Of a DNA stretch of 64,000 nucleotides, positions 3,572-29,673 are shown one piece after another. Both the position numbers and the translations under genes were made by a program. Under the pieces are notes generated by a model. The model saw only the letters and a list, made by a program, of their open reading frames with translations. It did not search any database and was not told where the DNA came from. Origin of the DNA: Cenarchaeum sp. (GTDB lineage: Archaea; Thermoproteota; Nitrososphaeria; Nitrososphaerales; Nitrosopumilaceae); contig OY843584.1 of NCBI GenBank assembly GCA_963692915.1, forward strand, positions 480,001 to 544,000, given 5' to 3'. How positions within the stretch are numbered: position 1 is the stretch's first letter; each line of letters begins with the position of its first letter.

Positions 3572-3579
3572 GGCGCGCC

Positions 3580-4608: not shown

Positions 4609-4828
4609 CGCGCGTTGCGCGCCGTATGTTCATTTATGAACTGTGGGCTGTGCGGGCGTCTGCTAGTCCGGGGGCGCATGGGCGGGGGTGCCCTCACGCC
4701 GGCCTTGCCGTCCGGGACACTTGCGCGCGCCCCGCGTGCGGCCATTCGGCCGTGCCATGGGCCGCCATGGGGCCACCTGCCGTGCGTGGGCATGAAAAAT
4801 TAATTACGGTCGCCCTGCGGGGCTCGCC

Positions 4829-6130: not shown

Positions 6131-6140
6131 GTGCTAGGGG

Positions 6141-6413
6141 ATGGCCAAGATCACCGAGTCCGAGATTGTGCGTGTGGCGGCCCTCATGAAGATAGATGCC
6201 GGCGATGCGGCCTCACACGTTCCCAAGATCAAAAAGATGATCAAGTACTTTGAGAGCCTCGACCTGGCTGACATGGGGGACAGCGCCCCCAATGCGCACG
6301 TCATCCCGCTTGATGCGCTTCGAGGCGATGAGCGCGTCGAGTGCCCAGATGGGCTTATGGGACACCTAAATGGGGAGGCCGGCGAGCACATTCGTTCGCC
6401 AGACCTGAAATGA
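6141..6413 (+). CDS. gatC: Asp/Glu-tRNA amidotransferase subunit C
   Basis: 90 aa, EIVRVAALMKI...LRGD...IRSP pattern. Stop overlaps the gatA ATG. Confidence 0.85.
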   Translation: MAKITESEIVRVAALMKIDAGDAASHVPKIKKMIKYFESLDLADMGDSAPNAHVIPLDALRGDERVECPDGLMGHLNGEAGEHIRSPDLK

Positions 6414-7867: not shown

Positions 7868-9273
7868 TGGCCAAGATCGGCCTCGAGATACACTGCCAGC
7901 TGACCACGCTGGAGAGCAAGCTCTTTTGCGGCTGCAGGGCAGACTATCGCAAGATGGCTCCAAACACGAACATCTGCGCGACGTGCATGGGCCTGCCCGG
8001 CACGCTGCCGCGCCTGAACGGTGAGGCCGTGAGGAGGGCCATGGCCATAGCCGTCTCGCTTGGCTGCAGCGTGCCCGGCACGCTGTCATTCTTTCGCAAG
8101 AACTACTTTTACCCAGACCTGCCAAAAAACTACCAGATAACGCAGCTTGACATCCATGGGCCGGCGAGTGTGGGTCACGGCGGCTCGGTGAGCGTCGGAT
8201 CGCGCACGGTCACGATAACCCGCGTGCAGCTAGAGGAGGATCCCGGCAGGATCGTCTACAGCGGAGCCTCAGAAAAGACACAGTCCACGCTAGTCGACTA
8301 TAACAGGGCTGGCACGCCGCTCGTCGAGATTGTGACAGGCCCTGACCTGCAGAGCGCACACGAGGTTCGCGCGTTTGTAAACCTGCTTCATGACATGCTT
8401 GAAAACCTTGGGGTGTCTGACGTCTCACTTGATGGCGCAATGCGTGCTGACGCAAACGTGTCAATAGAGGGAGGCAACAAGGTCGAGATAAAGAATGTCA
8501 GCTCGTTCCGTGACCTCGAGCGCGCCATCGAGTACGAGATAGCGCGCCAGACAGGAAATGTCGAGCACGGCCTTGAGACGCGGCAAGAAACGCGCCAATG
8601 GGACGAGCGAAGGCGCACAACGGTGGCCGCGCGTTCAAAGGAGGCAGACCAGGACTATCGGTATCTTGTAGAGCATGACATACCGTTCATAGATGTCAGT
8701 GGCGCAGTTGAGAAGGTTCGCTCGTCACTGCCCGAGAGCATTGCGTCCAGGAGGCGCAGGTATGCCGAGGAGTACGGAATGCAGGCGCAGGTGGCCGAGG
8801 TTCTCGCCTCGCAGCCGCACTTTGCGCGCCTGTTCGATGATGCGCGAACGCCAGAAAACTCGCGTGAGCTTGCAAACATTGTGACGACAGACCTCATGGG
8901 CCTCCTTGAGACGCGCGAAAAGCAGGCCGCCTCGAGGCTAACGCCTGCCGGTCTTGGCGCACTGGCCCTTGCCATATCGCGCAAGGAGATAACGCGAACC
9001 TCGGCAAAGACTGCACTCCAGTCCATGGTAAACACTGGCGCGACGCTAGAGGAGACGGTCAGATCCCTTGGCCTCGGTGCAGTCGATGATGCCGGCGAGA
9101 TTGAGCGTGCAGTCGGCGAGGTCATGGACTCCGAGCCCGGTGCCGTGGCCGATGCGCGCAAGTCGCCCAATGCCATCAACTATGTCATGGGCCTCGTCAT
9201 GAAGAGGTGCGGCGGCAGGGCGGATCCGGCCGCCGTCAGGGCGCTCATAGAGGCGCGCCTGCGCGACGCCTGA
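7864..9273 (+). CDS. gatB: Asp/Glu-tRNA amidotransferase subunit B
   Basis: IGLEIHCQL, PGTLP, RKNYFYPDLPKNYQITQ, DYNRAGTPLVEIVT, C-terminal Yqey-like domain. Confidence 0.95.
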   Translation: MMAKIGLEIHCQLTTLESKLFCGCRADYRKMAPNTNICATCMGLPGTLPRLNGEAVRRAMAIAVSLGCSVPGTLSFFRKNYFYPDLPKNYQITQLDIHGPASVGHGGSVSVGSRTVTITRVQLEEDPGRIVYSGASEKTQSTLVDYNRAGTPLVEIVTGPDLQSAHEVRAFVNLLHDMLENLGVSDVSLDGAMRADANVSIEGGNKVEIKNVSSFRDLERAIEYEIARQTGNVEHGLETRQETRQWDERRRTTVAARSKEADQDYRYLVEHDIPFIDVSGAVEKVRSSLPESIASRRRRYAEEYGMQAQVAEVLASQPHFARLFDDARTPENSRELANIVTTDLMGLLETREKQAASRLTPAGLGALALAISRKEITRTSAKTALQSMVNTGATLEETVRSLGLGAVDDAGEIERAVGEVMDSEPGAVADARKSPNAINYVMGLVMKRCGGRADPAAVRALIEARLRDA

Positions 9274-9341
9274 GCGCACACGAATGGCCATGCCGCGCCG
9301 CTTGATGTGGGTTAATTAAAGAGGGGCACGGCGAATGCGCA

Positions 9342-10631
9342 TTGAGCGCCGTGATGCCCGCAATCGCCGGAGCAGTATGCCTCGTGGCCGGACTCGCCAT
9401 CGGGTTCACGGCCGCCGGACTCTCGTTCGTCGAGTCGACGGCTCCTGCGGCCGGCATGGACGCCAATGACGATGGTCTTTCAGGCACAGTCGAGATCGGC
9501 TTTCTCCTTCCATTGACAGGCGGACAGTCCACGCACGGTGAGGAGAATGCGGCCGGCGCCATGCTTGCGATAGACGACCTCAACGACTACCTCTCCGAGG
9601 TGGGCGCGAACTGGCAGGCCCGTGGCGTCGTCGAGGACACTGCGACTAGCCCTGTTGTTGCTACTGAAAAGCTGACCACACTCAACGCCCGCGGGATAGA
9701 GATCGTCGTCGGCCCACAGACAAGCGGTGAGGTTCGTGCGGCAAAGGGATACGCCGACTCTAATGGAATGCTGCTCTTTAGCCACGCGTCGACTGCGCCG
9801 TCACTTGCAATCCCAAACGACAGCGTGTACCGCATGATCGTTGATGACACAAAGCAGGGACCGGCGATCGCCGCCATGGCGGTGCGCTCCGGAGCAGACG
9901 TCCTGATACCGGTCTGGCGCGGTGACACGTGGGGTGATGGACTAGTAGAGTCCGCGTCTGCCTCGTTTGTGTCGCGAGGCGGCACAGTCGATGAGGGCAT
10001 ACGCTACAATCCAGAATCAGTAGAGTTCTCGGCCACGGTGTCGGTTCTCGCCGAAAGGGTTGCGGCCCATGTGGAGAGCTCTGGCGCCGATAACGTGATC
10101 GTCCTCCTAGTGGCGTTTGCCGAGGCTCTCCCAATAATGCAGACTGCGGCAATTCATGACATGCTTGATGACGTGCGCTGGATTGGCAGTGACGGAAGCG
10201 CACTGGAGCACAAGATCACGACAGACCCCGTGGCCTCGGCGTTCTCTGACTCTGTCGAGTTCACGACTGTCCAGATATCGGCATCGCACAACGAGATATA
10301 CGAGAGTGTGCGCACGCGACTTGCCGAGCAGTTTGCCGGACGCGACGTGAACGGGTATGCGTACACGATATATGACGCGACATGGGTCATGGGCCTCTCG
10401 ATGCTCCATGCCGGCTCGTCTGATGCGCAGCTCGTCGAGCACGCCATCCCGACTGTCGCCGCAAACCACTTTGGCGCCATAGGCAACACACGGCTCAATG
10501 ACGCCGGTGACCTGGCCGGCGCCAACTATGACCTCTGGGCCACCGTTGGGGGCGAGTGGGTGAACACTGGAATGTACATGCTGTCAACGGACACCATCAT
10601 GCCTGTCGCTGGCATGGCGGGGGGAGCATGA
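9342..10631 (+). CDS. Branched-chain amino acid ABC transporter substrate-binding protein (LivJ/K-like), copy 1
   Basis: N-terminal TM anchor, IGFLLPLTG, STAPSL, DTWGDGL, YDA motifs of type I periplasmic binding proteins. Adjacent to Liv ATPases and permeases. Confidence 0.85.
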   Translation: MSAVMPAIAGAVCLVAGLAIGFTAAGLSFVESTAPAAGMDANDDGLSGTVEIGFLLPLTGGQSTHGEENAAGAMLAIDDLNDYLSEVGANWQARGVVEDTATSPVVATEKLTTLNARGIEIVVGPQTSGEVRAAKGYADSNGMLLFSHASTAPSLAIPNDSVYRMIVDDTKQGPAIAAMAVRSGADVLIPVWRGDTWGDGLVESASASFVSRGGTVDEGIRYNPESVEFSATVSVLAERVAAHVESSGADNVIVLLVAFAEALPIMQTAAIHDMLDDVRWIGSDGSALEHKITTDPVASAFSDSVEFTTVQISASHNEIYESVRTRLAEQFAGRDVNGYAYTIYDATWVMGLSMLHAGSSDAQLVEHAIPTVAANHFGAIGNTRLNDAGDLAGANYDLWATVGGEWVNTGMYMLSTDTIMPVAGMAGGA

Positions 10632-11896
10632 TGGCAGCAGGGGGCAAGACGGCAGCAGTGGGCATAGTGGCCCTCATCGCCGGCATCACGATCGGCTTTT
10701 TTGCCACCGGCGGCAACACGATCGCCGACACGCCTGCTGCGCTCCCGCCCGGAGAGATGGGCATGGGGACTCAGGACACATACACGCTGGGCCACATTGC
10801 TCCACTGACAGGCGATCTCTCCCAGTATGGACAGGACGGCATTGCCGCAGCGCGCCTGGCCGAGGCTGACTTTAACGAGTATCTCGAAAAGGTGGGCGCG
10901 ACATGGCGGCTTGCGCTAGCGCACGAGGACAGCCAGACAAACCCCGTGCTCGCACTAGAAAAGATCACTGCGCTCAAGGCCAGGGGCATTGACACGGCGA
11001 TCATATACTCAAGCGCGGCGGTCAACTCGGTAAAGGGATATGTCGACGCAAACGGCATGGTCGTCATTAGCGCAACGTCGACTGCACCGCAGCTTGCGGT
11101 GTCCGGCGATGGCGTCTTTCGCCTTGTTCCAGATGACACAAGGCAGGGGCCGGCGCTCGCAGAGCTTGTGAGTGACTCGGGAGTCGAGATCATGGTGCCG
11201 ATCTGGCGTGGCGACACGTGGGGAGACGGCCTGCACAGGACAGCAGTGGACGCATTTGTGGCCATGGGAGGAACCGCCGATGAGGGAATTCGCTACAACC
11301 CCGAGTCACCCGCGCTCTCCGTGTCAGCATCTGTTCTTGCCGAGAGGGTCGGCGCAATGGTCGACGAGCACGGCGCGGATCGCGTTGGCGTTCTCACGAT
11401 AGGGTTTGCCGAGACGTTAGAGCTCATGCAGGAGGCCTCTGTCCATGACATACTCGATGATGTCTTGTGGTTTTGCACGGACGGCATAACCAACAACCTG
11501 GCACTCGTTAGTGACCCGATAGGACTGGCGTTCGTCGAGTCCACGCGCCTGCACGGCACGCAGCCTGCCGCAGCTGACACGCCACAGCGTACCGATGTTG
11601 AGGCACGACTTGTGGCCGAGCTTGGCCGCGTGCCAAACACGTACTCTTTTGGCGTGTATGACGCAGTCTGGCTCTTTGGCAAGTCTGTGCTAGAGTCAGG
11701 CAGCACTGACGCCGAGGACATTCGCGCTGCGCTCCCGCTTGTTGCCGGTGCTCACAGTGGGGCCATCGGGCACACTGCGCTCAATGACGCCGGCGATCTC
11801 GACTCGGGAGACTTTGCCATATGGGGAGTCATTGATGGCGAGTGGGAGGTCGTGGGGACATACCTGTCACAGGCCGGCACGATAGCGCCCGCCTAG
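10628..11896 (+). CDS. Branched-chain amino acid ABC transporter substrate-binding protein, copy 2
   Basis: Paralogue of the upstream gene (shared P.WRGDTWGDGL, DEGIRYNPES, LNDAGDL). ATG at 10628 overlaps the previous stop. Confidence 0.85.
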   Translation: MMAAGGKTAAVGIVALIAGITIGFFATGGNTIADTPAALPPGEMGMGTQDTYTLGHIAPLTGDLSQYGQDGIAAARLAEADFNEYLEKVGATWRLALAHEDSQTNPVLALEKITALKARGIDTAIIYSSAAVNSVKGYVDANGMVVISATSTAPQLAVSGDGVFRLVPDDTRQGPALAELVSDSGVEIMVPIWRGDTWGDGLHRTAVDAFVAMGGTADEGIRYNPESPALSVSASVLAERVGAMVDEHGADRVGVLTIGFAETLELMQEASVHDILDDVLWFCTDGITNNLALVSDPIGLAFVESTRLHGTQPAAADTPQRTDVEARLVAELGRVPNTYSFGVYDAVWLFGKSVLESGSTDAEDIRAALPLVAGAHSGAIGHTALNDAGDLDSGDFAIWGVIDGEWEVVGTYLSQAGTIAPA

Positions 11897-12618
11897 CCGA
11901 TTCCAAGGTATAGCTTGCTCAGGTCGTCCCTGGCGAGGAGCTCGTCCGGGCTGCCGGCAAAGACTGCACCACCGTTTGCAAGAACGGTCACCGCATCGCC
12001 AACCTCAAGGGCGCGCCTGACGTTCTGCTCCACGAGGACGATCGTGATGCCAAACTCCTCGCGCATCTTGCTGATCTCGTCGAGAACCTCGCCGGCAAGC
12101 TTGGGTGAGAGGTTTGCGGTGGGTTCGTCAAAGAGCATGACGTCAGGCTTTCTGACAAGTGCCATGCCCATGGCGAGCATCTGGCGCTCGCCGCCGCTGA
12201 GGGCCTCTGCGCGCTCGTCAGCATGCCTGACTAGCGCAGGAAATGTCTCCATGACGCCACCGGCGCGCGAGCGCGCCTCCTCGTCGCCTAGCGTGTATCC
12301 GGCCATGACGAGGTTTTCGCGCACGCTGAGGTTGGTGAACACGTTCTTTACCTGCGGGAGGTACGCAATGCCCTCGCGCGCAATATTGTGGGGCGCCATG
12401 CCGGTTATGTCACGCTCTGCGTATGACACGCTGCCCGAGTGGATCGAGCACAGGCCAAACATGCTCTTTAGGAGAGTCGACTTTCCACTGCCGTTGGGTC
12501 CGACAATCACGGTGATCTCGTTCTTTTTCGCATCAAAGTTCACGTCAGATATGACCGTGCTGCTGCCATATCCGGCCACAAGGCTGCGCGTTCTGATGAG
12601 CGGGGTCTCAGCGGCCAA
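11893..12618 (-). CDS. livF: Branched-chain amino acid ABC transporter ATPase (LivF-like)
   Basis: Walker A GPNGSGKST, LSGGERQMLAMG, DEPT, LVEQN. Start uncertain (TTG 12618, or ATG 12645/12669). Confidence 0.88.
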   Translation of the reverse strand: MAAETPLIRTRSLVAGYGSSTVISDVNFDAKKNEITVIVGPNGSGKSTLLKSMFGLCSIHSGSVSYAERDITGMAPHNIAREGIAYLPQVKNVFTNLSVRENLVMAGYTLGDEEARSRAGGVMETFPALVRHADERAEALSGGERQMLAMGMALVRKPDVMLFDEPTANLSPKLAGEVLDEISKMREEFGITIVLVEQNVRRALEVGDAVTVLANGGAVFAGSPDELLARDDLSKLYLGIG

Positions 12619-13363
12619 GGTATGACTCTGCAACTCGCTCGTCATTGACGATCTCGTCTGCGCTCCCACTTGCTATTATGCGACCGTGATCCATGGCAAA
12701 GACGTGGTCTGCGTACTTTAGCGATATGTCAAGGCGATGCTCTATGATGAGAAACGTGATTCCAGACTCTGAGGCCATGTCCTGTATGCCCTTGAATATG
12801 TCGTGGGCAAGCGTGGGGTTTACGCCCGCTATGGGCTCGTCCATGAGCAAGACGCGAGCATTGCCGACCTTTGCCTTTGCGAGCTCGAGTAGCTTGCGCT
12901 GTCCACCGCTAAGGCTGTCACTCCTTGTCACGAGCTTTTCCTGCAGGCCTGATGATGAAAGTGCGCCTATGGCCATGCCCATCGCGCGCTCCTCGTCTTC
13001 CTTCCACACGTGGTGCAGCGGCGCGTTGCGGTACGACTCGCCTGCATTGTCGCCTGTGGCAACGAGGACGTTCTCAAGCGCAGTCAGCATCGAGAATGAC
13101 TGGGGTATCTGGAATGTTCGCACGAGGCCAAGGCGATGCGTCTGGAGCATTGGGCTGTTTGTGATGTCCTCGCCGCCAAGCTTTACGCTTCCGGCATCGG
13201 CGCGAAGCGCACCAGAGATGACGTTTATGAGCGTCGTCTTGCCGCTGCCGTTGGGTCCGATAAGCTGGTGAATCTTGCCCTCCTCGAGGTCCATGTCCAC
13301 GCCGTCAAGGACGACTAGGCCGCCGAAGAGCTTGCGCACGCCCCTGACCTGCAGTATTGCCAT
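12608..13363 (-). CDS. livG: Branched-chain amino acid ABC transporter ATPase (LivG-like)
   Basis: FGGL..LD, GPNGSGKTT, RTFQ, LSGGQRKLLELA, DEPIAGVNP, IIEH, C-terminal YLG. Confidence 0.9.
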   Translation of the reverse strand: MAILQVRGVRKLFGGLVVLDGVDMDLEEGKIHQLIGPNGSGKTTLINVISGALRADAGSVKLGGEDITNSPMLQTHRLGLVRTFQIPQSFSMLTALENVLVATGDNAGESYRNAPLHHVWKEDEERAMGMAIGALSSSGLQEKLVTRSDSLSGGQRKLLELAKAKVGNARVLLMDEPIAGVNPTLAHDIFKGIQDMASESGITFLIIEHRLDISLKYADHVFAMDHGRIIASGSADEIVNDERVAESYLGR

Positions 13364-13630
13364 TGCAGCACGCTCCCCGACTGGGCAGAATTAAGGGTTT
13401 TGAGGCGCCTGCCCAACTGGCAGCTCGTGCCCACTGCCCGCCTTCGCACCGTGGAAGCATTGCCGCGACACGAGATCGGCAGACGCCCACGGCACTCTTA
13501 AATCCGCGCGTCCGGGCACATCGCGCATGACGCGAGGTGCAAGAGCCCATGCGCAGCCGTGCGCTGAACCCATGTCCTGGCTAGCCGGCCGGCCGCGCCG
13601 CGCACATCCGTTGGGGCGGAAACGGGCACC

Positions 13631-14644
13631 ATGATCAGGCCAAGGCTCTGGCACGTGCCGGTGATCGGCGCTGTCGTGGCAGCAGCGGCAATCCTTCTCG
13701 TCTCGCCGGATCTGTCGCCAGACCCGATACTCTCTGCGGCCATCATATACTCTAGCCTTCTTGTGCTCCTTGCGCTGGGACTCACGATGACATACATGAC
13801 AACACGCGTGCCAAACTTTGCGCACGCGGCGGCTGCGACGATCGGCGTGTATGCGGCACTAGTGGTGTCGCGCGTGTGGGAGCTCTCGCCATACCTGTCA
13901 ATACCCATTGCCTTTGGAATCGCGGGAGCCTCGTCGATTGCGCTATACACGTTCATACTAAAGCCGCTCATACGCAAGAACGCCTCGCAGGCAATACAGA
14001 TGATATCGACCCTGGCATTTGACCTTGTGCTCATTGCGGCCCTGAACATAACGGCAGACTATATTGTGCGCACGTACCATGTCACGGCTCGAGAGTTTAC
14101 GCTTCGCAGCTATGATGCGCAGGTTGGCGATCTTCCGGCGGTTCTCTTTGTGGCACCAGTCGTCATTGCCGGAATCGTGATTGCGCTGCACATTATGCTA
14201 AAGCACACGCGCTTTGGAATTGCAATGCGCGCAACGATTGAAAACCCCGACCTGTCTAGCGTTGTAGGCATTAATGTTAGAAACGTGTATGCCGTGTCGT
14301 GGTTTATTGGTGGTGGTCTAGCAGGCGTGGCCGGAGCGCTAATGTCATTGTGGTTTCAGGGAGACCCCGGACTCGGCGCACTCTTGATACCGAGCATATT
14401 TGCGGCTAGCATAGTCGGGGGATTTATGAGCATATATGGCGCGATCGCAGGCGGGATTCTCGTTGGGCTCACGGAGATACTTGGCACACGCTGGCTTGCC
14501 GGCGAGCTGGGCCCGTGGGTCATTGCGTACAGGCCGCTAGTCCCGCTCATATTCATCGTAATCACGCTGATGATCGTGCCACGCGGTCTGGCAAGCGTCG
14601 ACTGGCGCGCACTGGGGAGGAGGTTGCATGTCATTAGGGCCTGA
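13631..14644 (+). CDS. livH: Branched-chain amino acid ABC transporter permease (LivH-like)
   Basis: ALGLTMTY...NFAH, TRFGIAMRA, GIN, hydrophobic TM segments, terminal PRGL. Confidence 0.88.
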   Translation: MIRPRLWHVPVIGAVVAAAAILLVSPDLSPDPILSAAIIYSSLLVLLALGLTMTYMTTRVPNFAHAAAATIGVYAALVVSRVWELSPYLSIPIAFGIAGASSIALYTFILKPLIRKNASQAIQMISTLAFDLVLIAALNITADYIVRTYHVTAREFTLRSYDAQVGDLPAVLFVAPVVIAGIVIALHIMLKHTRFGIAMRATIENPDLSSVVGINVRNVYAVSWFIGGGLAGVAGALMSLWFQGDPGLGALLIPSIFAASIVGGFMSIYGAIAGGILVGLTEILGTRWLAGELGPWVIAYRPLVPLIFIVITLMIVPRGLASVDWRALGRRLHVIRA

Positions 14645-15710
14645 GGTGACGTTCTTTGTCGACCTCCTTGCGATATACTCGATATACCTGATAATCAACA
14701 CGAGCCTAAACCTCGAGTTTGGGTACGCGGGCATTCCAAACTTTGGAAAGGTTCTCGCAGTGGGCGCCGGCGCGTTTGTCGCAGCGGCCATACCGGGGCG
14801 CATACTGGCAAACATGGCAGGCATCGAGGGCGACTATATCACCGAGAACATATACATAATGTCGCAGGTTAACACATGGCTCGTTGACAATACGGGAATC
14901 GGGTTTGTTGTGTTCTTTGTCACGCTGGCGATCGCCGGAGTCGTGGGTGCGGTCCTTGGACTCCTCACGGCATATCCGGCCATACGACTGCGCGGGGACT
15001 ATCTCGCGATAACGCTTCTTGCGTTTGGCGAGGGAATGCGCGTAATCGGGATCAACTATACGGAGATCGCCGGAGGCACCCTCGGCGTGCAGCTTCCGGA
15101 TCCGCTAGTGTGGCTGCCGCAGGACCTGAGGTTTCCAATAGCCACTGTCGGCCTCGTCGCGATGGCCGCCGTGGCCATGATCTACAGCGACAGGCTCGTG
15201 CGCTCCCCGCTAGGGCGCCTCCTGCGCGCCGTGCGAGACAACGAGGTCGCCGCCGAGTCTGTCGGCAAGGACGTCATGCGAGCACGCGTAAAGACGATAA
15301 TGATAGCAGCCGCGATGGCCGGAGTCGCCGGCGCAATGTACGCGTTTTATGTCGGCGGCGCGATATCGTTTGCGTATGACCGCCTCAACTGGACGTTCTG
15401 GCCGTTCATGATGATACTCATCGGCGGACTTGCCAATAGCCGCGGGGTCCTACTCGGCACGCTTCTCTTTGTGCTTGTGCGCAAGTTGATCACGTTCTAC
15501 AAGGACTCGCTGCAGGGCTTTGTCCCGTTTGACGTTGTCTGGCTTGACTATCTCCTTCTTGGGGCAGTTCTCCTGGCCGTTCTGCTGTACAGGCCACAGG
15601 GTCTGCTCTCAGAAAAGGCGACTCCGACAATTCGCGTGCCCGGCCTGCCGCGCGATGAGTCTATTCTCTCGCGCCTTGGCGGCATTGCGCGCCGGCTTGC
15701 TGGCGCCTAG
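14628..15710 (+). CDS. livM: Branched-chain amino acid ABC transporter permease (LivM-like)
   Basis: SLNLEFGYAG, RLRGDYLAITL, SPLGRLLRAVRDNE, RPQGL. Confidence 0.88.
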   Translation: MSLGPEVTFFVDLLAIYSIYLIINTSLNLEFGYAGIPNFGKVLAVGAGAFVAAAIPGRILANMAGIEGDYITENIYIMSQVNTWLVDNTGIGFVVFFVTLAIAGVVGAVLGLLTAYPAIRLRGDYLAITLLAFGEGMRVIGINYTEIAGGTLGVQLPDPLVWLPQDLRFPIATVGLVAMAAVAMIYSDRLVRSPLGRLLRAVRDNEVAAESVGKDVMRARVKTIMIAAAMAGVAGAMYAFYVGGAISFAYDRLNWTFWPFMMILIGGLANSRGVLLGTLLFVLVRKLITFYKDSLQGFVPFDVVWLDYLLLGAVLLAVLLYRPQGLLSEKATPTIRVPGLPRDESILSRLGGIARRLAGA

Positions 15711-16939
15711 CGCGACTTTTTCACGCGTGATATCTCGGCGGCCACTAGTGGAAGGAATGCGCCAACGTCAGTTACAACGCCTAGGGCCTGCCACGTGCCG
15801 CGATCCATGAGCTTTGTGACTGTCGGCTGGCTGATGTCCACCACGACGACCTTTACGTCTGCTGGAAGCATGTTTCCAGTCGCTATCGAGTGGAGCATCG
15901 TTGAGATCATCATGACCATGTCGGCGTCCTTTAGGGCCTTGCGGTATTCGCGCTGAGCCTCGACCATGTCGGTGATAACGCCCGGCAACGGTCCGTCATC
16001 ACGTATTGACGAGGCGAGAACCAGGGGCACGCGTCCCTTTATGCACTCGTACACTATGCCGCGCCGGAGCTTGCGTGTGGAGACCATTCTCGAGAACGAG
16101 CCGGCCTTGAACACTGCGTTTATCGCGTCCATGTGGTTGCGGTGGCCGCGTACGGCAAGTGTCCCGTCGCGCACGTTCATTCCAAGGGACGTGCCCATTG
16201 TCGCGTACTCTATGTCGTGGACTGCCAATGCGTTTCCGGCCAGGACAGCGTCAATGAGCCCTGCACGTATCATGCCGGCCACGGCGTCAGCTGCGCCCGT
16301 GTGCACTATTGCCGGACCGCCCACGAGGACTATGCGTCCACCACGAGCCTTTGTGCGAACAATGTCCTCGGCGACGCGTCTTGCTATGTGCTGTGTCGGC
16401 CTCTCACTTGAGCTGCTGCTTCCCATGAACTCAAAGACGTTGACGCCCTCGCGTGGCCTCTGCGGCGGCGTGACGCGAACTCCGGACTCTCCTGTGACGA
16501 TCTTGTCGCCGCGCTTGACGTGGCGTATGGGCATGCAAGAGGCGCGCCGCCCCTTGATGACGATGCACTTGTCCATCATCATGTTGTCTACCTCGATCCA
16601 CTTTCCGGTGACGCGCACGTGCGTGCGGTTGTTCGTCGTGCTGTAAAAGTTAGCCGGCATCACCATGTTTCGCTGTGCGACGCGCAGCACTGCGTTTTCA
16701 GGCTCCCTTGAGGTTGCCCCGTGGCGATACACGTGCTCTAGTATGCTCTCAAGACCCCCTGCCGTGTCTGCGCGCACGAGAAGACGAGCGTTGCTCTTGT
16801 CTTTTTTGCGCTTTCCGATCTCCATACTTAGAACTTCAAACTCGCCACCCATGTCCATGATGGAGTCAAAGACCCTCGATAGCGTCATAGAGTCGACAAT
16901 GTGCCCCTTTACCTCAATCTCGTGCTCGTGCCGCGCCAT
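15707..16939 (-). CDS. TIGR00300-family protein (ArgZ/AgrE C-terminal-like, putative ornithine cyclodeaminase)
   Basis: GHIVDS, FYSTTN, FEFM.S.SSERP, GGPAIVHTG, GNALAVHDIE, SIRDDGPLP, MLHSIATGN. Confidence 0.85.
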   Translation of the reverse strand: MARHEHEIEVKGHIVDSMTLSRVFDSIMDMGGEFEVLSMEIGKRKKDKSNARLLVRADTAGGLESILEHVYRHGATSREPENAVLRVAQRNMVMPANFYSTTNNRTHVRVTGKWIEVDNMMMDKCIVIKGRRASCMPIRHVKRGDKIVTGESGVRVTPPQRPREGVNVFEFMGSSSSSERPTQHIARRVAEDIVRTKARGGRIVLVGGPAIVHTGAADAVAGMIRAGLIDAVLAGNALAVHDIEYATMGTSLGMNVRDGTLAVRGHRNHMDAINAVFKAGSFSRMVSTRKLRRGIVYECIKGRVPLVLASSIRDDGPLPGVITDMVEAQREYRKALKDADMVMMISTMLHSIATGNMLPADVKVVVVDISQPTVTKLMDRGTWQALGVVTDVGAFLPLVAAEISRVKKSR

Positions 16940-17037
16940 CGCGCAGCACAATTGCGTGCGATAACTAAAACCTTGCCTTGCGAGAGGCGTGGGGGGCTGC
17001 CGCATGGCGGTTCAGTCCGAGCATGGCGCGTGCAGGC

Positions 17038-17406
17038 CTAGACTGGTAGGGTTACCTCTCCCCTGAACTCGCGCAGGCCGTCAATGTCCATGTCTTCGAG
17101 GAGGCGCTTTTTTTGCTCCTCGGTGACGTTTTGCACAATGGCCTTTGCCATGCCCTCCGAGTCAACTAGGGCAAGAAGATACCCGCCTCCGTCAGCGAGG
17201 ACAAACCCCGGCGCGTCTGACACAAAGGCGTACATCGTCTCCTCGCCAACAGGCTCCCATGACGCGCTGTTAGTCGTGTTGCGAAGCGCGAGTGCCGGAA
17301 GCGCGCCATCACCGGCGATCGCGCCGAGATAGTCGCGTGCCTTGGCCACTCTCTTCTGTCCCACCTTTAGGGCTGTAAAATAGCGCATTCTAGCGTGCTC
17401 ACGCAT
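17038..17406 (-). CDS. Conserved hypothetical protein
   Basis: 122-aa ORF with natural composition and a TATA-like element (TTATAT) about 15 bp upstream on the minus strand. Start may be the second Met (17388). Confidence 0.7.
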   Translation of the reverse strand: MREHARMRYFTALKVGQKRVAKARDYLGAIAGDGALPALALRNTTNSASWEPVGEETMYAFVSDAPGFVLADGGGYLLALVDSEGMAKAIVQNVTEEQKKRLLEDMDIDGLREFRGEVTLPV

Positions 17407-17443
17407 CGCCGCTGATATAATTGTGTGGGGGGGATCTATGCAC

Positions 17444-17761
17444 TCACTTGTTGCCGCGAGGCGCCCCGACCATGTCCCCTTCGGAGACGTCCTGATCCCA
17501 TGTCCCCCTTGCGCCCTTGACTAGGGAAAATCCAGACGCGCACACTAGCGCAATCGGCAGCGCGATGGCCCATGTGCTCTCTGCGAGAACCTCGTCGCAG
17601 TCACGCGCGGCACTGCCCGAGTCGCCAAAGTTGCGGCATTTCTCGAATGCCTCGGCCTGCGTGACCGCATCGACATACACAGACCCAAATGCCCCAAAGG
17701 TGACCAGTGCGGCAAACGCAAGCGCGACGCCGGCAACAACAAATCTCATGTCGCTCATCAC
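17444..17761 (-). CDS. Small membrane protein with two TM helices
   Basis: Two hydrophobic segments flanking a Cys-containing loop, C-terminal GTWDQDV...MVG. Coupled to the upstream gene. Confidence 0.65.
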   Translation of the reverse strand: MMSDMRFVVAGVALAFAALVTFGAFGSVYVDAVTQAEAFEKCRNFGDSGSAARDCDEVLAESTWAIALPIALVCASGFSLVKGARGTWDQDVSEGDMVGAPRGNK

Positions 17762-20310: not shown

Positions 20311-20691
20311 ATGAGAAAGTCGATGGAGAATCTTGCCACGAGCAAGATCACCGGGGGACGCAGGAGGCCGCTGAGGATACGGCGCAAGTACGAGATAGAC
20401 CGCTATCCAAACGAGGCACCGGCCGGCCCGCAGGCGACTGTCACGCGCAGCACGCGCGGTGGCGTGCTAAAGACTGCGCTAAAGGCAGCCGACTATGCAA
20501 ACCTCACTGCTCCCGGAGCAAAGACAGTTCGCACAAAGATACTAAAGGTTCTTGACAACCCAACTAACAACGACTATCGTCGGCGTGGAATCATCACGCG
20601 CGGCGCCGTACTCGAGACGGAGGCCGGCAAGTGCAGGGTCGTCTCGCGTCCCGGACAGGACGGCGCAGTCAACGCAGTGCCTGTGCAATGA
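20311..20691 (+). CDS. rps8e: 30S ribosomal protein S8e
   Basis: SKITGGRR...RKYE, TRGG..K, NPTNNDY.RRGIITRGA, SRPGQDGAVNA. Confidence 0.95.
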   Translation: MRKSMENLATSKITGGRRRPLRIRRKYEIDRYPNEAPAGPQATVTRSTRGGVLKTALKAADYANLTAPGAKTVRTKILKVLDNPTNNDYRRRGIITRGAVLETEAGKCRVVSRPGQDGAVNAVPVQ

Positions 20692-20996
20692 AGGACTATG
20701 ATCACATAGTCGTTTGGCTGGACTATTTCAACAAGACCATAACGAGGGCAAAGGGCCGGCGCCTTGGCCGCGAGAGCTGTGTCTTTGACCCGTCGCTCGC
20801 CGAGCTCGAGGGAGCCGCCAAGGCTGCGGGCCTTGAGGTCTCGGCATCCGAGTCCTCGGTGAGGTACCCGCGGCGCCAGTATGTTCGCTCGGGCTATATC
20901 ACGGTGCCAAAGTCGGCCTCAAAGTCATCCCTCCTTGCGACCATCGCCTCGCGCCTGGTCGAGGCGCGAGCTAGGCGCAAAAAAGATCGCTCCTAG
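20688..20996 (+). CDS. srp19: Signal recognition particle protein SRP19
   Basis: VVWLDYF....R.KGRR, P...EL..AA...GL, YPR, G...V.K. Follows rps8e. Confidence 0.9.
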   Translation: MKDYDHIVVWLDYFNKTITRAKGRRLGRESCVFDPSLAELEGAAKAAGLEVSASESSVRYPRRQYVRSGYITVPKSASKSSLLATIASRLVEARARRKKDRS

Positions 20997-21058
20997 CTCT
21001 AAGATCAAGTATTTTTGACCGGACCCTTATGATATAGGGTGTATTGACCCCCCGTCAC

Positions 21059-22315
21059 TTGCAGGAGGTAGGACACGTTACACATGTCGCAAAAAGCGGA
21101 AGGGTCATCGTTGAGCTGGCAGCCTCGGTCAGGGACGGGACGGTTCTGTGCGACAGCCTGGGGACTCGCCTCGCGCGCGTGATGGAGACGATAGGCCCGG
21201 TCTCGCGTCCATTCGCCTCGGCTAGCCCGATAACCAACAACATGTCGCCGCATGTCGGCAAGGGGATATTTGCGATTGACGAGGAGCGCGCCGCAACACG
21301 GTACGAGAGCCGCACGCAGACAAATGATGCCGATGACAATGGTGGCGAGCCCCAGACAGAACGTTCCGAGCACACCTCGAGCACGTCACGCGAGGAGCGC
21401 ACACCTGCACGGCGTGAAGGTGGCGGATCGCGCTCGCGTGGCCAGGGCAGGTACTCTGAGCGTAGGGGACCGGCACGGCGCGACTCTTCCTCAAAGTCTG
21501 GACGCAGCGACGGCCGGCGCACTCCACGGCGCGACGGCGGTTCAGGCTCGCGTGGCCAGGGCAGGTACTCTGGGCGCGGCGGTCCGGCGCGGCGCGACTC
21601 CTACTCAAAGTCCGGCAGCGACGGCGGTTCAGGCTCGCGTGGCCAGGGCAGGTACTCTGGGCGCGGCGGTCCGGCGCGGCGCGACTCCTACTCAAAGTCC
21701 GGCAGCGACGGCGGTTCAGGCTCGCGTGGCCAGGGCAGGTACTCTGGGCGCGGCGGTCCGGCGCGGCGCGACTCCTACTCAAAGTCCGGCAGCGACGGCG
21801 GTTCAGGCTCGCGTGGCCAGGGCAGGTACTCTGGGCGCGGCGGTCCGGCGCGGCGCGACTCCTACTCAAAGTCCGGCAGCGACGGCGGCCAGGGCAGGTA
21901 CTCTGATCGCAGGGGTCCGGCGCGGCGCGACTCCTACTCAAAGTCCGGCAGCGACGGCGGTTCGGGCTCGCGTGGCCAGGGCAGGTACTCTGATCGCAGG
22001 GGTCCGGCGCGGCGCGACTCCTACTCAAAGTCCGGCAGCGACGGCGGTTCGGGCTCGCGTGGCCAGGGCAGGTACTCTGATCGCAGGGGTCCGGCGCGGC
22101 GTGACAGCTATTCGTCATCATCTCGCACGGGACCTCGCGGTGACGGCAGGCGCGCACCACCACGGCGCGGTCCGGCTCGACGTGACACAGGTGCGAGGAC
22201 GGCGCGCGAGGAGGGCAGTCGTGGTGCACCGCGCAACAATGTCACTTTTAGATCACGTGGATTGGACAGCAGGGGCACCGGCCGCCGCGACAGGAGCGGG
22301 AGGCGACGCGAATGA
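21059..22315 (+). CDS. gar1: H/ACA RNP protein Gar1 (N-terminal ~75 aa) with long RG/RGG/SY-rich repeat tail
   Basis: N-terminal LQEVGHVTHVAKSGRVIVEL...LARVMETIGPVSRPFAS is Gar1/Naf1-like. TTG start after TATA-like TTATGATATA. Stop overlaps the tfb ATG (ATGA). Confidence 0.8.
   Translation: MQEVGHVTHVAKSGRVIVELAASVRDGTVLCDSLGTRLARVMETIGPVSRPFASASPITNNMSPHVGKGIFAIDEERAATRYESRTQTNDADDNGGEPQTERSEHTSSTSREERTPARREGGGSRSRGQGRYSERRGPARRDSSSKSGRSDGRRTPRRDGGSGSRGQGRYSGRGGPARRDSYSKSGSDGGSGSRGQGRYSGRGGPARRDSYSKSGSDGGSGSRGQGRYSGRGGPARRDSYSKSGSDGGSGSRGQGRYSGRGGPARRDSYSKSGSDGGQGRYSDRRGPARRDSYSKSGSDGGSGSRGQGRYSDRRGPARRDSYSKSGSDGGSGSRGQGRYSDRRGPARRDSYSSSSRTGPRGDGRRAPPRRGPARRDTGARTAREEGSRGAPRNNVTFRSRGLDSRGTGRRDRSGRRRE
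21418..22112 (+). repeat. Intragenic tandem repeat, 87-bp (29-aa) unit, about 8 copies
   Basis: Units start at 21533, 21620, 21707, 21794 (DGGSGSRGQGRYSGRGGPARRDSYSKSGS), 21881 (72-bp shortened unit), 21953 and 22040 (YSDRRG variant), plus a degenerate copy at about 21418. Confidence 0.95.
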
Positions 22316-23256
22316 GCCGACTCGAGATTCCGACATGCGCCGAGTGCAGCAGCACGTCACTCATTGACGACCTCGAGCGCGGCGAGACGGTCTGCCAGTC
22401 ATGTGGGATTGTCGCAGCAGACCAGATGGTTGACCATGGTCCAGAAACCGCACGTACGGGATATGAGGACAAGATGAACCTCGCGCGCGCGTCAGGAACG
22501 ATGACATACTCGCAGCATGACCTTGGGTTGTCCACGACCATAGCGACCACGTCGAGGGACTTTAGCGGCAAGTCGATAGGCTCTGACACGGCCTCGACGA
22601 TGAGGCGCCTTGACAAGTGGCAGTCGCGCGTGCGCGTGACGAGCAACACCGAGAGGCGCCTGGTCGGCATGCTCTCAAAGCTCGGCGACGTGTGCCGTAG
22701 CATGGACCTGCCTAACAACGTCCTGGAGACGGCCTCGATGATATACCGTGACCTTGACGGCAAGGCAGTCAAGGGGCGCCACATCGACAGCATGGCCGTC
22801 GCAACAGTCTACATGGCATGCCAGCGGTGTGAGATCGTCAGGTCACTTGAGGACATCTGCCGCAGCTTTTGCGACCCGCGCGAGATCCGCTCAAAGACAA
22901 AGCTCGCCGCAAAGTACTATCGTGACATGCGCCTCAGCATGGAGACGACACCGACCATATCAGTCACGATGGATCGGCGAATATCGCAGATAGCCAACAT
23001 CACGAGGACAGACCCGCGCGTTGAGCGCCTCGCGCTCAAGATAGCAGACAAGACGAGCAATGGCGGGTTTGCCGGCGGCAAGACGCCGCAGGGAATAGCT
23101 GCGGCGTACCTTTATGTCGCCTCGATCCTGCGGGGCCAGAGTGTCCTGCAGCGTGACATCTCGTCTGTCGCACAGGTCACAGAAGTGACGATTCGCAGCC
23201 GCTGCAAGGATCTCCTGGCAAGCTATCGTCTCGTCGTAAGGCTTTCGCCTGCATGA
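22312..23256 (+). CDS. tfb: Transcription initiation factor IIB (TFB), full length
   Basis: Zn ribbon CAEC...CQSCG, DHGPE, two cyclin repeats, HTH QVTEVTIR. Confidence 0.92.
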   Translation: MSRLEIPTCAECSSTSLIDDLERGETVCQSCGIVAADQMVDHGPETARTGYEDKMNLARASGTMTYSQHDLGLSTTIATTSRDFSGKSIGSDTASTMRRLDKWQSRVRVTSNTERRLVGMLSKLGDVCRSMDLPNNVLETASMIYRDLDGKAVKGRHIDSMAVATVYMACQRCEIVRSLEDICRSFCDPREIRSKTKLAAKYYRDMRLSMETTPTISVTMDRRISQIANITRTDPRVERLALKIADKTSNGGFAGGKTPQGIAAAYLYVASILRGQSVLQRDISSVAQVTEVTIRSRCKDLLASYRLVVRLSPA

Positions 23257-27026: not shown

Positions 27027-28118
27027 TGCCTTGTACGAAAAGTAGTAGACTGGGCAGGAATGCTTGCCGGGCGCAGATCCGGGAGCCCCGGGGGCGCCCC
27101 GGGATCCGGCAGGCTGCCGAAACATACGTTTGGGGGGCTCCGCCGCCGGCGCGCCATGCCGGTCAGGAGGCTTGACGACAGGGCGCTCCGGTACGTGGCC
27201 AGGACGCTGGCGACGCGGAGCGCCGAGGAGGTGGCGCGCGAGCTGGGGATCTCCAGGGCGTGGTCGTACAGGCTTCGCGCGCACTGCCGGCGCACCGGCG
27301 CGCCGCCGGAGCCGCGGCCGATGGGAAGGCCGCGCAGGGACGTCACCGACGGCGAGGTGGCCGAGGTCCTCGGCGAGCACGCCGACCGGCCGGCCGGCGT
27401 CGTGCGCGTGGCCGAGGGGCTGCGCGGCAACAACTCAAAAATAACGTACTGGTCGGTGTACCGCATCATGCTGGCGGAGGGGCTCGTCACGAGGTCGCGG
27501 GCGAAGTCGCGCAGGCGAAAGTGGGTCAGGTTCGAGCGCGCGCACTCCGGCGCGCTGTGGCACGTGGACTGGCACATAATGAAATACGGGCCACTTGCGG
27601 GCTCGCACCTCATAGTGTTCCTCGACGACGCGTCGCGGTGCGTCACGGGCTTTGGCGTGTTCGCCGAGGCCACGTCGGAAAACTCCGTGCTTGCGCTGCG
27701 AAAGGCGATCAGGATGTTTGGCGCGCCGGCGCAGATCCTCTCGGACCACGGCACGCAGTTCACGGCAAGCCGGCGCGGCACGCCGAGCCGCAGCTGGACG
27801 CCGACGCTCTTCGAGCGGGAGCTGCTGGACCGCGACATAGCGCACCTCATGGCGCGCGTCCGCCACCCCCAGACCAACGGCAAGGTCGAGAGGTTCTTCC
27901 AGACGCTCGAGACGGAGATCGGCCACTTTGGCGGGGTCCCCGAGTTCATCGCGTACTACAACGAGAGGCGCCTCCACTTCGCCCTGGACATCAAGGGCGG
28001 CGAGACGCCCCTGCTGGCCTACAGGAGGCGCAGGGCCGACGGGCGGGTCCGGGCGGAGAACCCGAGGTGGATGGAGGTGGACTCGAATGAGTGAGTCTAC
28101 TACTTTTCGTATAAAACA
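27027..28118 (+). mobile_element. IS481-family insertion sequence (1092 bp) with 15-bp target duplication
   Basis: TIRs tgccttgtacgaaaagtagtagact and agtctactacttttcgtataaaaca. Direct repeat cgttatgggcagtat at 27012-27026 and 28119-28133. Confidence 0.92.
27156..28094 (+). CDS. IS481-family DDE transposase (integrase core)
   Basis: HTH (EEVARELGISRAW), LWHVD, LDDASR, ILSDHGTQF, HPQTNGKVERF, YYN.RR.H.AL. Confidence 0.92.
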   Translation: MPVRRLDDRALRYVARTLATRSAEEVARELGISRAWSYRLRAHCRRTGAPPEPRPMGRPRRDVTDGEVAEVLGEHADRPAGVVRVAEGLRGNNSKITYWSVYRIMLAEGLVTRSRAKSRRRKWVRFERAHSGALWHVDWHIMKYGPLAGSHLIVFLDDASRCVTGFGVFAEATSENSVLALRKAIRMFGAPAQILSDHGTQFTASRRGTPSRSWTPTLFERELLDRDIAHLMARVRHPQTNGKVERFFQTLETEIGHFGGVPEFIAYYNERRLHFALDIKGGETPLLAYRRRRADGRVRAENPRWMEVDSNE

Positions 28119-28129
28119 CGTTATGGGCA

Positions 28130-29673
28130 GTATGAGGTCAGCACCCCCGCCCCTTTTGGTCAAATAGGCGCGATCCTGCCGATCCATTTACCGCGGCGGC
28201 GCACGCCGGGGCGTGAAGGGAAAACGGCGCGAGCGTGGAGAGCCAGACCGCACGGAGCCAGACCACGCGTGGGCGCAGCTCCTGGGCATGTTCAATGCCG
28301 CCGAGGAGCGGGCCAGGGCGCGGGACAGGCAGATCAGCGAGCTGCAGGAGAGCGTTGCCGAGCTGAAGGACAATATCAGTGCGCGGGACGAGAGGATCGC
28401 CATGCTGGAGGCGGAGGCCAAGACCATGAGGCGCACGCTGTCGTACTACCAGAACCCCAACACGCCGCCGTCGTCGGCATCGCTGGAGCACAAGAGGCGC
28501 AAGAGGGAGGTTCGGCGGGCCAGGGAACGCGGCGAGCTCCCGCCGCACGGGACGCCCGGCGGGAGGCCGGGCCACCGCGGCACGTCGCGCCGGCACGAGC
28601 CGACGGGGACCGAGCGGCACAGCGTTGACCGTGGGCCTTGCGAGTGCGGCGGCCGCATGGAGGTCACGACGAGTACACGCGACATCATCGACATCCCGCC
28701 CCCGCGGCCGGTCGAGACGCGGCACCACGTGGAGTCCGCCACGTGCCTGGACTGCGGCCACGTGCGCCGCGCGGACAGCGGCCTGCCGGCGCACGGATCC
28801 TACGGCAGGAGGATCATCGCCGCCGTGGCGTCGTACCTGTCGTCGCGGATCCCTGCGGCGGCGATCGCCGCCAAGATGCTGGACGTGCACGGGATCTCGA
28901 TGTCAAAGGCCACGGTGCTGCGCATACGGGACGACGTGGCCGACGCGCTGGCCCCTGAGGCCAGGGGCATAATGGGGATGATCAGGGAGGCGCCACACGT
29001 GCACGTGGACGAGACGGGGTTCCCGAGCTCCGGCGAGGGCCACTGGGTGTGGCTGGCGGAGCACGAGAACCTGGTCGGCGTGGAGTTCAGCAAGAGCAGG
29101 GGCGCGCAGGTGCTCGACGTGATACTTCCGGGGTACGGCGGCGTGGTGATAAGCGACGGGTATGCCGCGTACAGCAGGTTCGACGCCGGCGGGATGCACC
29201 AGCAGTGCTGGGCCCACGAGCTGCGCGCCGTGGAGCACGCCGCCAGGATCCACGGCGGGGGGCTGCCAGGGCTGCACGCCGACCTCCTCGCGCTGTACCG
29301 CGCCGCCAGGGACACCGCCGTCGCGCAGTGCCCTGAGCTGCGGCGCGCGATGGACGACGCCCTGGCGTCGCTGCTGGACCGGCACGACGACGGCGGGGGC
29401 GGGGAGCTGGCGCGCGCCGTGGCCAGGCTCCGCCGCGCCGCGCCGCGGATGTTCGCGTTCTGCGAGCACGCCGGCGTCGCCCCCACGAACAACGCCGCCG
29501 AGAGGGCGCTGCGCGACGTGGTCGTGCGGCGCAAGATAAGCGGCCAGCTCAAGGGGGGCGCGCCGGCGGCCAGGCGCATGTCGACCCTCCTGACATGCTT
29601 CCTGACGTGGAGGGCCATGGGGAAGGGCGTGACCGAGGAGGTCATGCGTGCGGTCTAGGTGCTGACCTCATAC
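28130..29673 (+). mobile_element. IS66-family element, single-ORF (ISBst12-like), 1544 bp
   Basis: Perfect 16-bp TIRs gtatgaggtcagcacc and ggtgctgacctcatac. 8-bp target duplication tatgggca at 28122-28129 and 29674-29681. Confidence 0.92.
28213..29658 (+). CDS. IS66-family transposase (TnpC-like)
   Basis: Coiled coil, NTPPSS, PGGRPGH.G, Zn finger CECG...CLDCG, HVDETG, SDGYAAY, QQCWAH, TNNAAERALR..V..RKISG. Confidence 0.92.
   Translation: MKGKRRERGEPDRTEPDHAWAQLLGMFNAAEERARARDRQISELQESVAELKDNISARDERIAMLEAEAKTMRRTLSYYQNPNTPPSSASLEHKRRKREVRRARERGELPPHGTPGGRPGHRGTSRRHEPTGTERHSVDRGPCECGGRMEVTTSTRDIIDIPPPRPVETRHHVESATCLDCGHVRRADSGLPAHGSYGRRIIAAVASYLSSRIPAAAIAAKMLDVHGISMSKATVLRIRDDVADALAPEARGIMGMIREAPHVHVDETGFPSSGEGHWVWLAEHENLVGVEFSKSRGAQVLDVILPGYGGVVISDGYAAYSRFDAGGMHQQCWAHELRAVEHAARIHGGGLPGLHADLLALYRAARDTAVAQCPELRRAMDDALASLLDRHDDGGGGELARAVARLRRAAPRMFAFCEHAGVAPTNNAAERALRDVVVRRKISGQLKGGAPAARRMSTLLTCFLTWRAMGKGVTEEVMRAV

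Follow-up and report, generated by a model that had tools for sequence, protein, structure and literature searches.

A predicted archaeal Gar1 with a 340-residue, repeat-built cationic tail in Cenarchaeum sp.

Gar1 is a subunit of the Cbf5–Nop10–L7Ae–Gar1 H/ACA ribonucleoprotein (RNP), which carries out pseudouridylation. Here we describe a gene at 21059..22315 of a 64,000-nt stretch of contig OY843584.1 (the window, to whose positions all coordinates without a contig prefix refer), from the genome of Cenarchaeum sp., that by sequence and fold modelling is the one gar1 of this organism and whose product continues beyond the Gar1 core into a tail of 340 amino acids (aa) containing tandem repeats. 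What is new is an archaeal Gar1 with a repeat tail of this length, a type of feature so far regarded as a property of nucleolar proteins of eukaryotes alone. We consider it probable on balance that this is a functional gar1 whose normal short basic tail has grown to 340 aa and acts as an RNA-binding arm. Below, the genome under study is called G000 and that of its sister species G001; G000–G004 are five genomes of one genus.

The assignment of the N-terminal part to Gar1 draws on sequence profiles and on a structural model. Searched against the PDB, a profile of 30 orthologous cores (A1) retrieved, at E ≤ 0.01, four P. furiosus Gar1 chains and nothing else, with 2hvy_B as the best match (E = 2.4e-11, positions 1–88/89), and all 30 family members match PF04410. 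The AlphaFold2 (AF2) model of the core built on alignment A1 has a predicted local distance difference test (pLDDT) score of 86.7, and the first Foldseek ranks are held by 2ey4_D, 2hvy_B and 2ey4_C (TM-scores of 0.78–0.80 by query and 0.90 by target, root-mean-square deviation (rmsd) of 1.2–1.4 Å), the best superposition being that on 2ey4_D (0.80/0.90, 1.2 Å); Naf1 and eukaryotic Gar1 rank after P. furiosus Gar1. The first-pass annotation, made from the letters of the DNA, had taken the N terminus for Gar1, and the profile check carried out here bears this out. A single gar1 match was found in each of 41 relatives (41/41), and the genome holds matches above cut-off for TruB_N/Cbf5 (C1:964196-964534, − strand) and Nop10 (C1:302712-302858). 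NCBIfam Gar1 equivalogs match the protein at E = 4e-5, far under their cut-offs. In the ESM Atlas the best score was 0.86, against a mark of 0.9; the hits, which we treat as leads only, were a Thermoplasmatota cluster of 146 aa, 12% of whose members are Gar1, and a cluster of Ascomycota Gar1.

The open frame (21044/21059..22315, + strand) contains no internal stop. We place its start at the TTG at 21059, giving a protein of 418 aa, because TTG is common across the aligned loci: of 30 related loci, 27 have TTG and 3 have ATG at the aligned LQEVG position, and in 10 of the 30 a TAA directly precedes this codon. At the other end the TGA (22313-22315) shares an ATGA with the ATG of the transcription factor B gene (tfb) at 22312, as had been noticed in the first pass. 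This ATGA junction with the next gene recurs in 22 of the 30 loci, and all five genus members have it; the downstream gene was identified as tfb in the G000 window, and the other loci were scored by the ATGA overlap.

Comparison of G000 with G001 argues that the tail is translated as part of Gar1. The sister protein, 94% identical over its first 99 aa, shares the architecture, with linker, first and last units and C-terminal end alike; its units number seven and are partly of another type. All gaps between the two sequences are whole codons, and the frame is kept in all five ungapped blocks. The ratio of non-synonymous to synonymous substitution (dN/dS) is 0.04 in the Gar1 core, 0.21 in the linker plus first unit, 0.19 in the C-terminal non-repeat part and 0.22 over all 298 alignable tail codons. 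The four other frames over the tail give 1.3–2.3, and the antisense frame that shares third positions gives 0.31 with nine stops; the neighbours S8e, SRP19 and TFB have values of 0.04, 0.06 and 0.09, respectively. The gene is free of frameshifts and internal stops in all five genus species, and all five proteins finish in GGRRR or GRRRE despite lengths of 92–418 aa, a shared end that, together with the ATGA overlap, implies that start and end lie in one frame in each species. Because the gaps are in frame and the purifying selection is specific to the Gar1 frame, we read the tail as a translated part of the protein, in agreement with the first-pass annotation, and its selection as relaxed but real purifying selection. 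Two overlapping open reading frames (ORFs), 21252-22367 (+) and 21222-22229 (−), were considered as genes and rejected, having dN/dS above 1 or stops in the sister species.

Table 1 Predicted features of the gar1 locus, in window positions
Feature	Position	Strand	Description
gar1 gene	21059..22315	+	418 codons, TTG start, TGA stop; open frame
Gar1 core, aa 1–78	21059..21292	+	Predicted six-stranded barrel; assigned by profile, fold and dN/dS 0.04
Mixed-charge linker, aa 79–125	21293..21433	+	Acidic patch NDADDNGGEPQTE; 10 D/E, 8 K/R, net −2; conserved versus G001
First, diverged unit, aa 128–165 (38 aa)	21440..21553	+	60/66 nt identical to G001 unit 1; 55/66 to internal units
Block A, units 2–5	21554..21886	+	GQGRYSGRGGPARRDSYSKSGSDGG(SGSR); three 87-bp units and one 72-bp unit; 66/66 nt identical
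Block B, units 6–8	21887..22132	+	GQGRYSDRRGPARRDSYS...; 87 bp in Tandem Repeats Finder; type common to the sister species
Non-repetitive basic C-terminal end, aa 359–418	22133..22312	+	Finishes ...GRRRE; conserved versus G001, dN/dS 0.19
tfb (transcription factor B)	22312..23256	+	Pfam TFIIB 1.8e-24, Zn_Ribbon_TF 4.1e-10; NCBIfam TFIIB 2.4e-71
srp19, upstream neighbour	20631..20996	+	Pfam SRP19 2.4e-14
SRP19–gar1 spacer	20994..21058	+	Conserved element of ~45 nt, promoter-like; TATGATA ~22–29 nt before start

The tail is organized as a linker, an array of repeats and a non-repetitive end (Table 1). A GQGRYS anchor parses eight units in the assembly: units 2–5 are of an SGRGGP type, units 6–7 are identical and of an SDRRGP type, and the first and last are diverged. 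Tandem Repeats Finder returns an 87-bp period over 21527-21888 (4.2 copies) and again over 21887-22105 (2.5 copies), each with 99% matches, and between the two 87-bp arrays lies a lone 72-bp unit (row 21815-21960), which is the fourth unit of block A minus five codons; all repeat periods are divisible by 3. An 18-aa motif, GQGRYSxRxGPxRRD(S/D)YS, recurs in all but one of the 15 units of G000 and G001, the exception being the first G000 unit, which has SS for YS. The description given in the first pass, of about eight frame-preserving units of 87 and 72 bp with two variants in blocks, therefore stands. Its 'acidic linker' stands in part: the acidic patch is there, and the overall acidity is not, as the net charge shows (Table 1).

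By composition the 340 aa consist of R (22.6%), G (22.1%), S (19.1%), D (7.6%) and Y, A and P (4.7% each), with 77 Arg, 16 Tyr and 16 Ala and three aliphatic or aromatic residues other than Tyr (V, F and L), and the net charge is +49 across the final 293 aa. These 293 aa are the longest basic, hydrophobic-poor stretch among ORFs of at least 90 aa in the 1.64-Mb genome, followed by stretches of 86 aa, in a probably spurious frame, and 84 aa, in the next real gene; because it is the longest by far, we take the tail to be more than a product of chance. The sequence thus describes a predicted disordered, strongly cationic Arg/Gly/Ser/Asp/Tyr polycation. A single-sequence AF2 run on the whole protein gave a mean pLDDT of 37.9, with 30–45 and no secondary structure in the tail, and is uninformative on disorder because the core failed in the same run.

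The number and type of units are still changing between the sister species. Internal G000 units are identical within a block (66/66 nt), differ by 4 nt between blocks and match any G001 unit at no more than 59/66 nt, whereas the terminal units have clear G001 orthologues (60/66 nt for the first, 64/66 nt for the last). An identical interior between orthologous ends points to slippage or unequal exchange inside the array since the two species separated, so that the internal units appear to have expanded recently and separately in each species, and the recent stepwise expansion suggested in the first pass gains support. The DRRGP type is common to G000 and G001; the GRGGP type, the sole one that creates RGG, occurs only in G000. 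In-frame periods are 87 and 72 bp in G000, 75 bp in G001 and, weakly, 24 bp in G003, and the Gar1 proteins of the genus are 418, 377, 206, 179 and 92 aa long.

Tails of this length are rare. Stop-to-stop frames measure 425, 384, 219, 186 and 110 aa in the genus and 74–139 aa in the other 36 relatives, so that long Gar1 tails are found in four of five genus genomes and in none of the 36 others; related genomes are non-independent samples, and the comparisons covered 41 relatives for Gar1 and 25 for Nop5. A sample of 401 genomes from the phylum contained 231 with a match, and among the 150 matches listed all but that of G000 were 63–166 aa. A collection of 1.84 billion representative proteins gave 377 matches at E ≤ 0.001; among the best 150 of the 377, the longest Gar1 had 212 aa and came from a G003-like genus member, and a 663-aa protein was an unrelated repeat protein. 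The core compared with proteins of 232–741 aa yielded 250 word-sharing candidates, none at E ≤ 0.001. Among the proteins examined, then, a 340-aa archaeal Gar1 tail is without parallel in sequence, and this comparison of lengths, which had been proposed as a check, upholds the rarity of long tails. The accompanying statement that archaeal Gar1 is normally the short core only has to be dropped, since basic tails of ~10–60 aa are usual in archaeal Gar1. Two proteins met in these searches have tails of related character: P0012, a 124-aa metagenomic Gar1, has a genuine Gly/Arg tail with ten consecutive G, and the tail of P0145, a 135-aa archaeal Gar1, is of K/N/R/S composition and includes YGGRDSK and RRYSK, motifs that resemble the G000 units. 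In the literature, a search mostly at the level of abstracts, with supplements outside its scope, returned no description of a long-tailed archaeal Gar1, and the parts of two papers drawn on here call glycine/arginine-rich (GAR) domains and lysine-rich disordered extensions eukaryote-specific and absent from archaeal small nucleolar RNP (snoRNP) proteins and Gar1 (PMC11528048, PMC8096250).

The tail is nonetheless not a GAR domain in the published sense, and the 'eukaryote-like RG/RGG' label attached to it in the first pass does not fit. Its 340 aa contain 4 RGG and 20 RG, the G/R ratio is 0.97 and 55.3% of residues are neither G nor R; the published GAR-motif (GMF) pattern finds five short matches (four of 13 aa and one of 8 aa), all in units 2–5 of block A, that cover 60 of the 340 residues. 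The GAR domains of vertebrate FBL, NCL and GAR1, by comparison, are described in the excerpted text of PMC9957100 as having generally less than 20% non-G/R residues and a G/R ratio above 2. Neither a closely spaced long RGG/RG run nor a G/R-dominated composition was found in the tail. No match to PRMT5 (PF05185) was found in the 99.86%-complete genome, no PRMT1-specific model having been run. PrmA (PF06325), considered as a lead to an arginine methyltransferase, was set aside: the model matches generic methyltransferases, and because matches also occur in 14 of 14 control genomes, the search is uninformative.

Set beside known proteins, the G000 protein shares with P. furiosus Gar1 (PDB 2HVY/2EY4, PF04410) its core fold, sequence family, start and basic C-terminal end, the 2hvy_B chain itself finishing in a K/R-rich stretch. 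It departs from Gar1 of this archaeal type in a tail of 340 aa instead of ~10–30 aa, in tandem units and in being Arg/Gly/Ser/Tyr-rich rather than Lys/Arg-rich. With the GAR/RGG domains of eukaryotic Gar1 it has in common an Arg- and Gly-rich cationic appendage, predicted to be disordered, on the same RNP subunit; unlike them, the tail is C-terminal only, has the G/R ratio and non-G/R share given above and is of independent origin inside one archaeal genus. It probably shares a general accessory RNA-binding role with the RGG domains of eukaryotic Gar1, as far as these are covered in the parts of PMC8096250 used here, and plausibly works like a GAR domain, being neither homologous to one nor a canonical member. 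Nop5, Nop56 and Nop58, also core proteins of a snoRNP, likewise end in charged tails that are basic and disordered, although Gar1 is another protein in another RNP. Low-complexity regions of the FET family combine RGG with [G/S]Y[G/S]. In composition only, the G000 tail resembles them in mixing RG dipeptides with SYS and RYS tyrosines and in being poor in hydrophobic residues; it differs in being much richer in Arg, Asp and Ser and in lacking a Gln-rich prion-like part, an RRM and a zinc finger.

Basic tails are also found on Nop5. In the archaeal family, all 15 complete cases (L036-L051) have a basic C-terminal tail of 41–178 aa. The longest, in G010 (L048 1958-2307), consists of 178 aa rich in R, G, S, Y and D with four 84-bp in-frame repeats, in a genome whose Gar1 is short; low-GC genera have Lys-rich Nop5 tails that are reminiscent of the eukaryotic KKE/D domains, which the part of PMC11528048 consulted describes as Lys/Glu/Asp polyampholytes forming the tails of Nop56 and Nop58. 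These basic Nop5 tails are at odds with the absence of such extensions from archaeal snoRNPs as stated in that part of the paper (PMC11528048). The G000 Nop5 tail is basic, 77 aa long and has GGPxRRDS and SRGQG in common with the Gar1 unit. It is the best non-self match of the unit in the genome; the score exceeds those of all 2000 composition-preserving shuffles in the case of unit A, and of 1993 of the 2000 in that of unit B. In DNA the similarity is limited to one 21-nt stretch (19/21), and the post-hoc motif RRD[SG] occurs in 3 of 15 Nop5 tails and 2 of 4 Gar1 tails; with so short a DNA match and a motif that is not general, we regard a common origin as a weak lead and do not claim it.

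After Gar1, the longest basic tails in real genes of the genome belong to a DEAD-box helicase, Nop5 and a Toprim/DnaG-like protein. The helicase (C1:792068-793477, −) has an 84-aa RGG-rich C-terminal tail, and the Toprim/DnaG-like protein (C1:104112-105458, +) an internal run of RD/RG dipeptides. Cbf5 (C1:964196-964534, −) has an acidic D/G/E/P end of ~40 aa. The fibrillarin of G000 has no tail.

In the explanation that we favour, the short basic C-terminal tail of Gar1 would have been enlarged by replication slippage or unequal recombination of in-frame 72–87-bp units, giving a non-specific, multivalent RNA-binding arm that projects from the substrate side of the RNP. Such an arm might give the RNP a higher affinity towards pre-rRNA or guide RNA or assist in the folding of RNA, and could tether the H/ACA RNP to pre-rRNA in a manner analogous to the RGG domains of eukaryotic Gar1; in yeast, the sections of PMC8096250 drawn on report that the RGG domains of Gar1 influence the dynamics of the RNP and its handling of substrates. 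The basic tails of the G000 helicase, Nop5 and Toprim/DnaG-like protein, and the 178-aa Nop5 tail of G010, speak for such a function by analogy. Several observations weigh against this explanation. By itself, the G000 protein scores 18.4 bits (whole) and 23.2 bits (core) against PF04410, whose gathering score is 29.3. GC content within gar1 peaks in the tail (70% versus 62% in the core), and the GC content of the genus, 56–71%, by itself favours Arg, Gly, Ala and Pro codons. The dN/dS of 0.22 in the tail is two to five times that of the core and the neighbouring genes, and within the array the alignment of paralogous units makes dS unreliable. The tail of G003 is unrelated and R/S/P/E-rich, that of G002 is R/A/G/P-rich and G004 is almost tailless. 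Since the tail sequence varies in this way across the genus, any selected property would be charge and disorder rather than a motif, and since G002 and G003 lack G/Y-rich units, RG content is not a conserved trait.

Much of this is what near-neutral runaway expansion would predict. In this main rival, GC-rich slippage inflates a tolerant disordered tail, possibly under weak selection, with no function beyond that of the ancestral short tail; besides the composition, the raised dN/dS and the unrelated tails of G002 and G003, it can draw on a tail length that differs between every pair in the genus, on the turnover of internal units within species and on other in-frame coding repeats in the genome. 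We judge it unlikely, while giving it serious weight, because the non-repeat parts of the tail have dN/dS of 0.19–0.22, far below 1 where other frames exceed 1, the 18-aa motif is kept through nearly all units of two species, the frame is intact in all five, and a similar tail arose on Nop5 in another genus. Another proposal, which goes back to the condensates suggested in the first pass, is that the eight Arg/Tyr units would confer multivalency on Gar1 and thereby drive the demixing of H/ACA RNPs and rRNA into a nucleolus-like body. The regular spacing of 77 Arg and 16 Tyr over eight units with almost no aliphatic residues is what such a scaffold might look like, the GAR domains of eukaryotic Gar1 and fibrillarin are reported to condense in the parts of PMC11528048 and PMC9957100 used here, and the peptides that the G000 Nop5 tail shares with the Gar1 unit would suit it. 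It is very unlikely all the same, given a fibrillarin without a tail, a tail composition outside that published for GAR domains, congeners whose tails lack Tyr or Gly-rich units and the absence of RRD[SG] from 12 of 15 Nop5 tails. Broader still, snoRNP core proteins of this family of ammonia-oxidizing archaea may have repeatedly and independently grown multivalent Arg/Tyr repeat tails, on Gar1 in this genus and on Nop5 in another, which would gather H/ACA and C/D RNPs together with nascent rRNA in a membrane-less nucleolus-like body. That, too, is decidedly improbable; if true, it would mean a prokaryotic ribosome-biogenesis body convergent with eukaryotic GAR domains, contrary to the published view.

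The array could, finally, be misassembled, or what follows the core could be an untranslated, spurious frame in GC-rich DNA. Logan short-read contigs from four runs of two studies match the flanks of the array at 100% identity, and contigs from both studies match the first and last units at 100% identity, but no contig of the four runs spans the array, bins across 21656-21763 have no or almost no cover and the copy number of eight rests on a single-contig assembly and the sister genome, a further point against the favoured explanation. The two other long open frames, of 371 aa (+) and 335 aa (−), overlap the array, so open frames are cheap here, and the exact G000 and G001 Gar1 proteins, with both possible starts, are absent from a collection of 15 billion proteins. 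Against an artefact stand these exact contig matches to the flanks and the end units, the independently assembled sister genome, with the same architecture and seven diverged units, a selection signal specific to the Gar1 frame, and the C-terminal GRRR with the ATGA junction, which require read-through of the whole tail. We regard an artefact as highly improbable and an RNA-binding extension of a functional Gar1 as the explanation to carry forward. A second population of contigs, from three runs of a single study, covers window positions 21115-21545 with 5–8 differences per 112–163 bp and with other unit variants inside the array, which indicates that a close relative or a second strain coexists in those samples.

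The gene lies in the order S8e–SRP19–Gar1–TFB, a synteny that adds to the support for its identity as gar1. Its 62-nt spacer from srp19 contains an element of ~45 nt that begins at the SRP19 stop codon (consensus CTAGCTnTTAGCTAAAGTAAAGTTGACAGAAGTCTATGATAA) and is kept across genera with 33–71% GC, the same spacer being found in L002-L022. Rfam had no match at E ≤ 1 over 20600-22500, spacer included. The element is a candidate that may serve as a promoter for gar1–tfb, conceivably with a leaderless mRNA, or as the site of a regulator. An archaeal amoA was found in the genome and fits the earlier placement in Nitrososphaerota. About 5 kb downstream of gar1 is an insertion sequence (IS) of the rve-integrase type (window 27060-28094, +), near-identical frames of which, 304 aa and in one case 355 aa long, occur at eight places in the genome; an IS66-family transposase follows it (window 28213-29658, +). 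On C1, identical ORF-sized stretches recur with a spacing of 6204 bp at ~534-17677 and 1639158-1643371, close to the two ends of the single contig (for example, 2585, 8789 and 14993; 4382 and 10586), a sequence pattern that points to a ~6.2-kb tandem repeat running across the contig junction. The top-scoring tandem repeats of the genome are at C1:1351311-1353181 (376 bp, 5.0 copies) and 1347133-1348158 (375 bp, 2.8 copies), with ~80% matches.

The Cenarchaeum sp. protein and its congeners amount to a natural, independent experiment on what a tail does for an RNP that modifies rRNA in cells lacking a nucleus, an experiment in which the Gar1 proteins of 92, 179, 206, 377 and 418 aa are ready-made controls. 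If GC-driven slippage is all that is at work, the gene would still be a clear case of a low-complexity RNA-binding appendage arising de novo from a short basic end; should the tail prove to organize ribosome biogenesis, the interest of the finding would be high.

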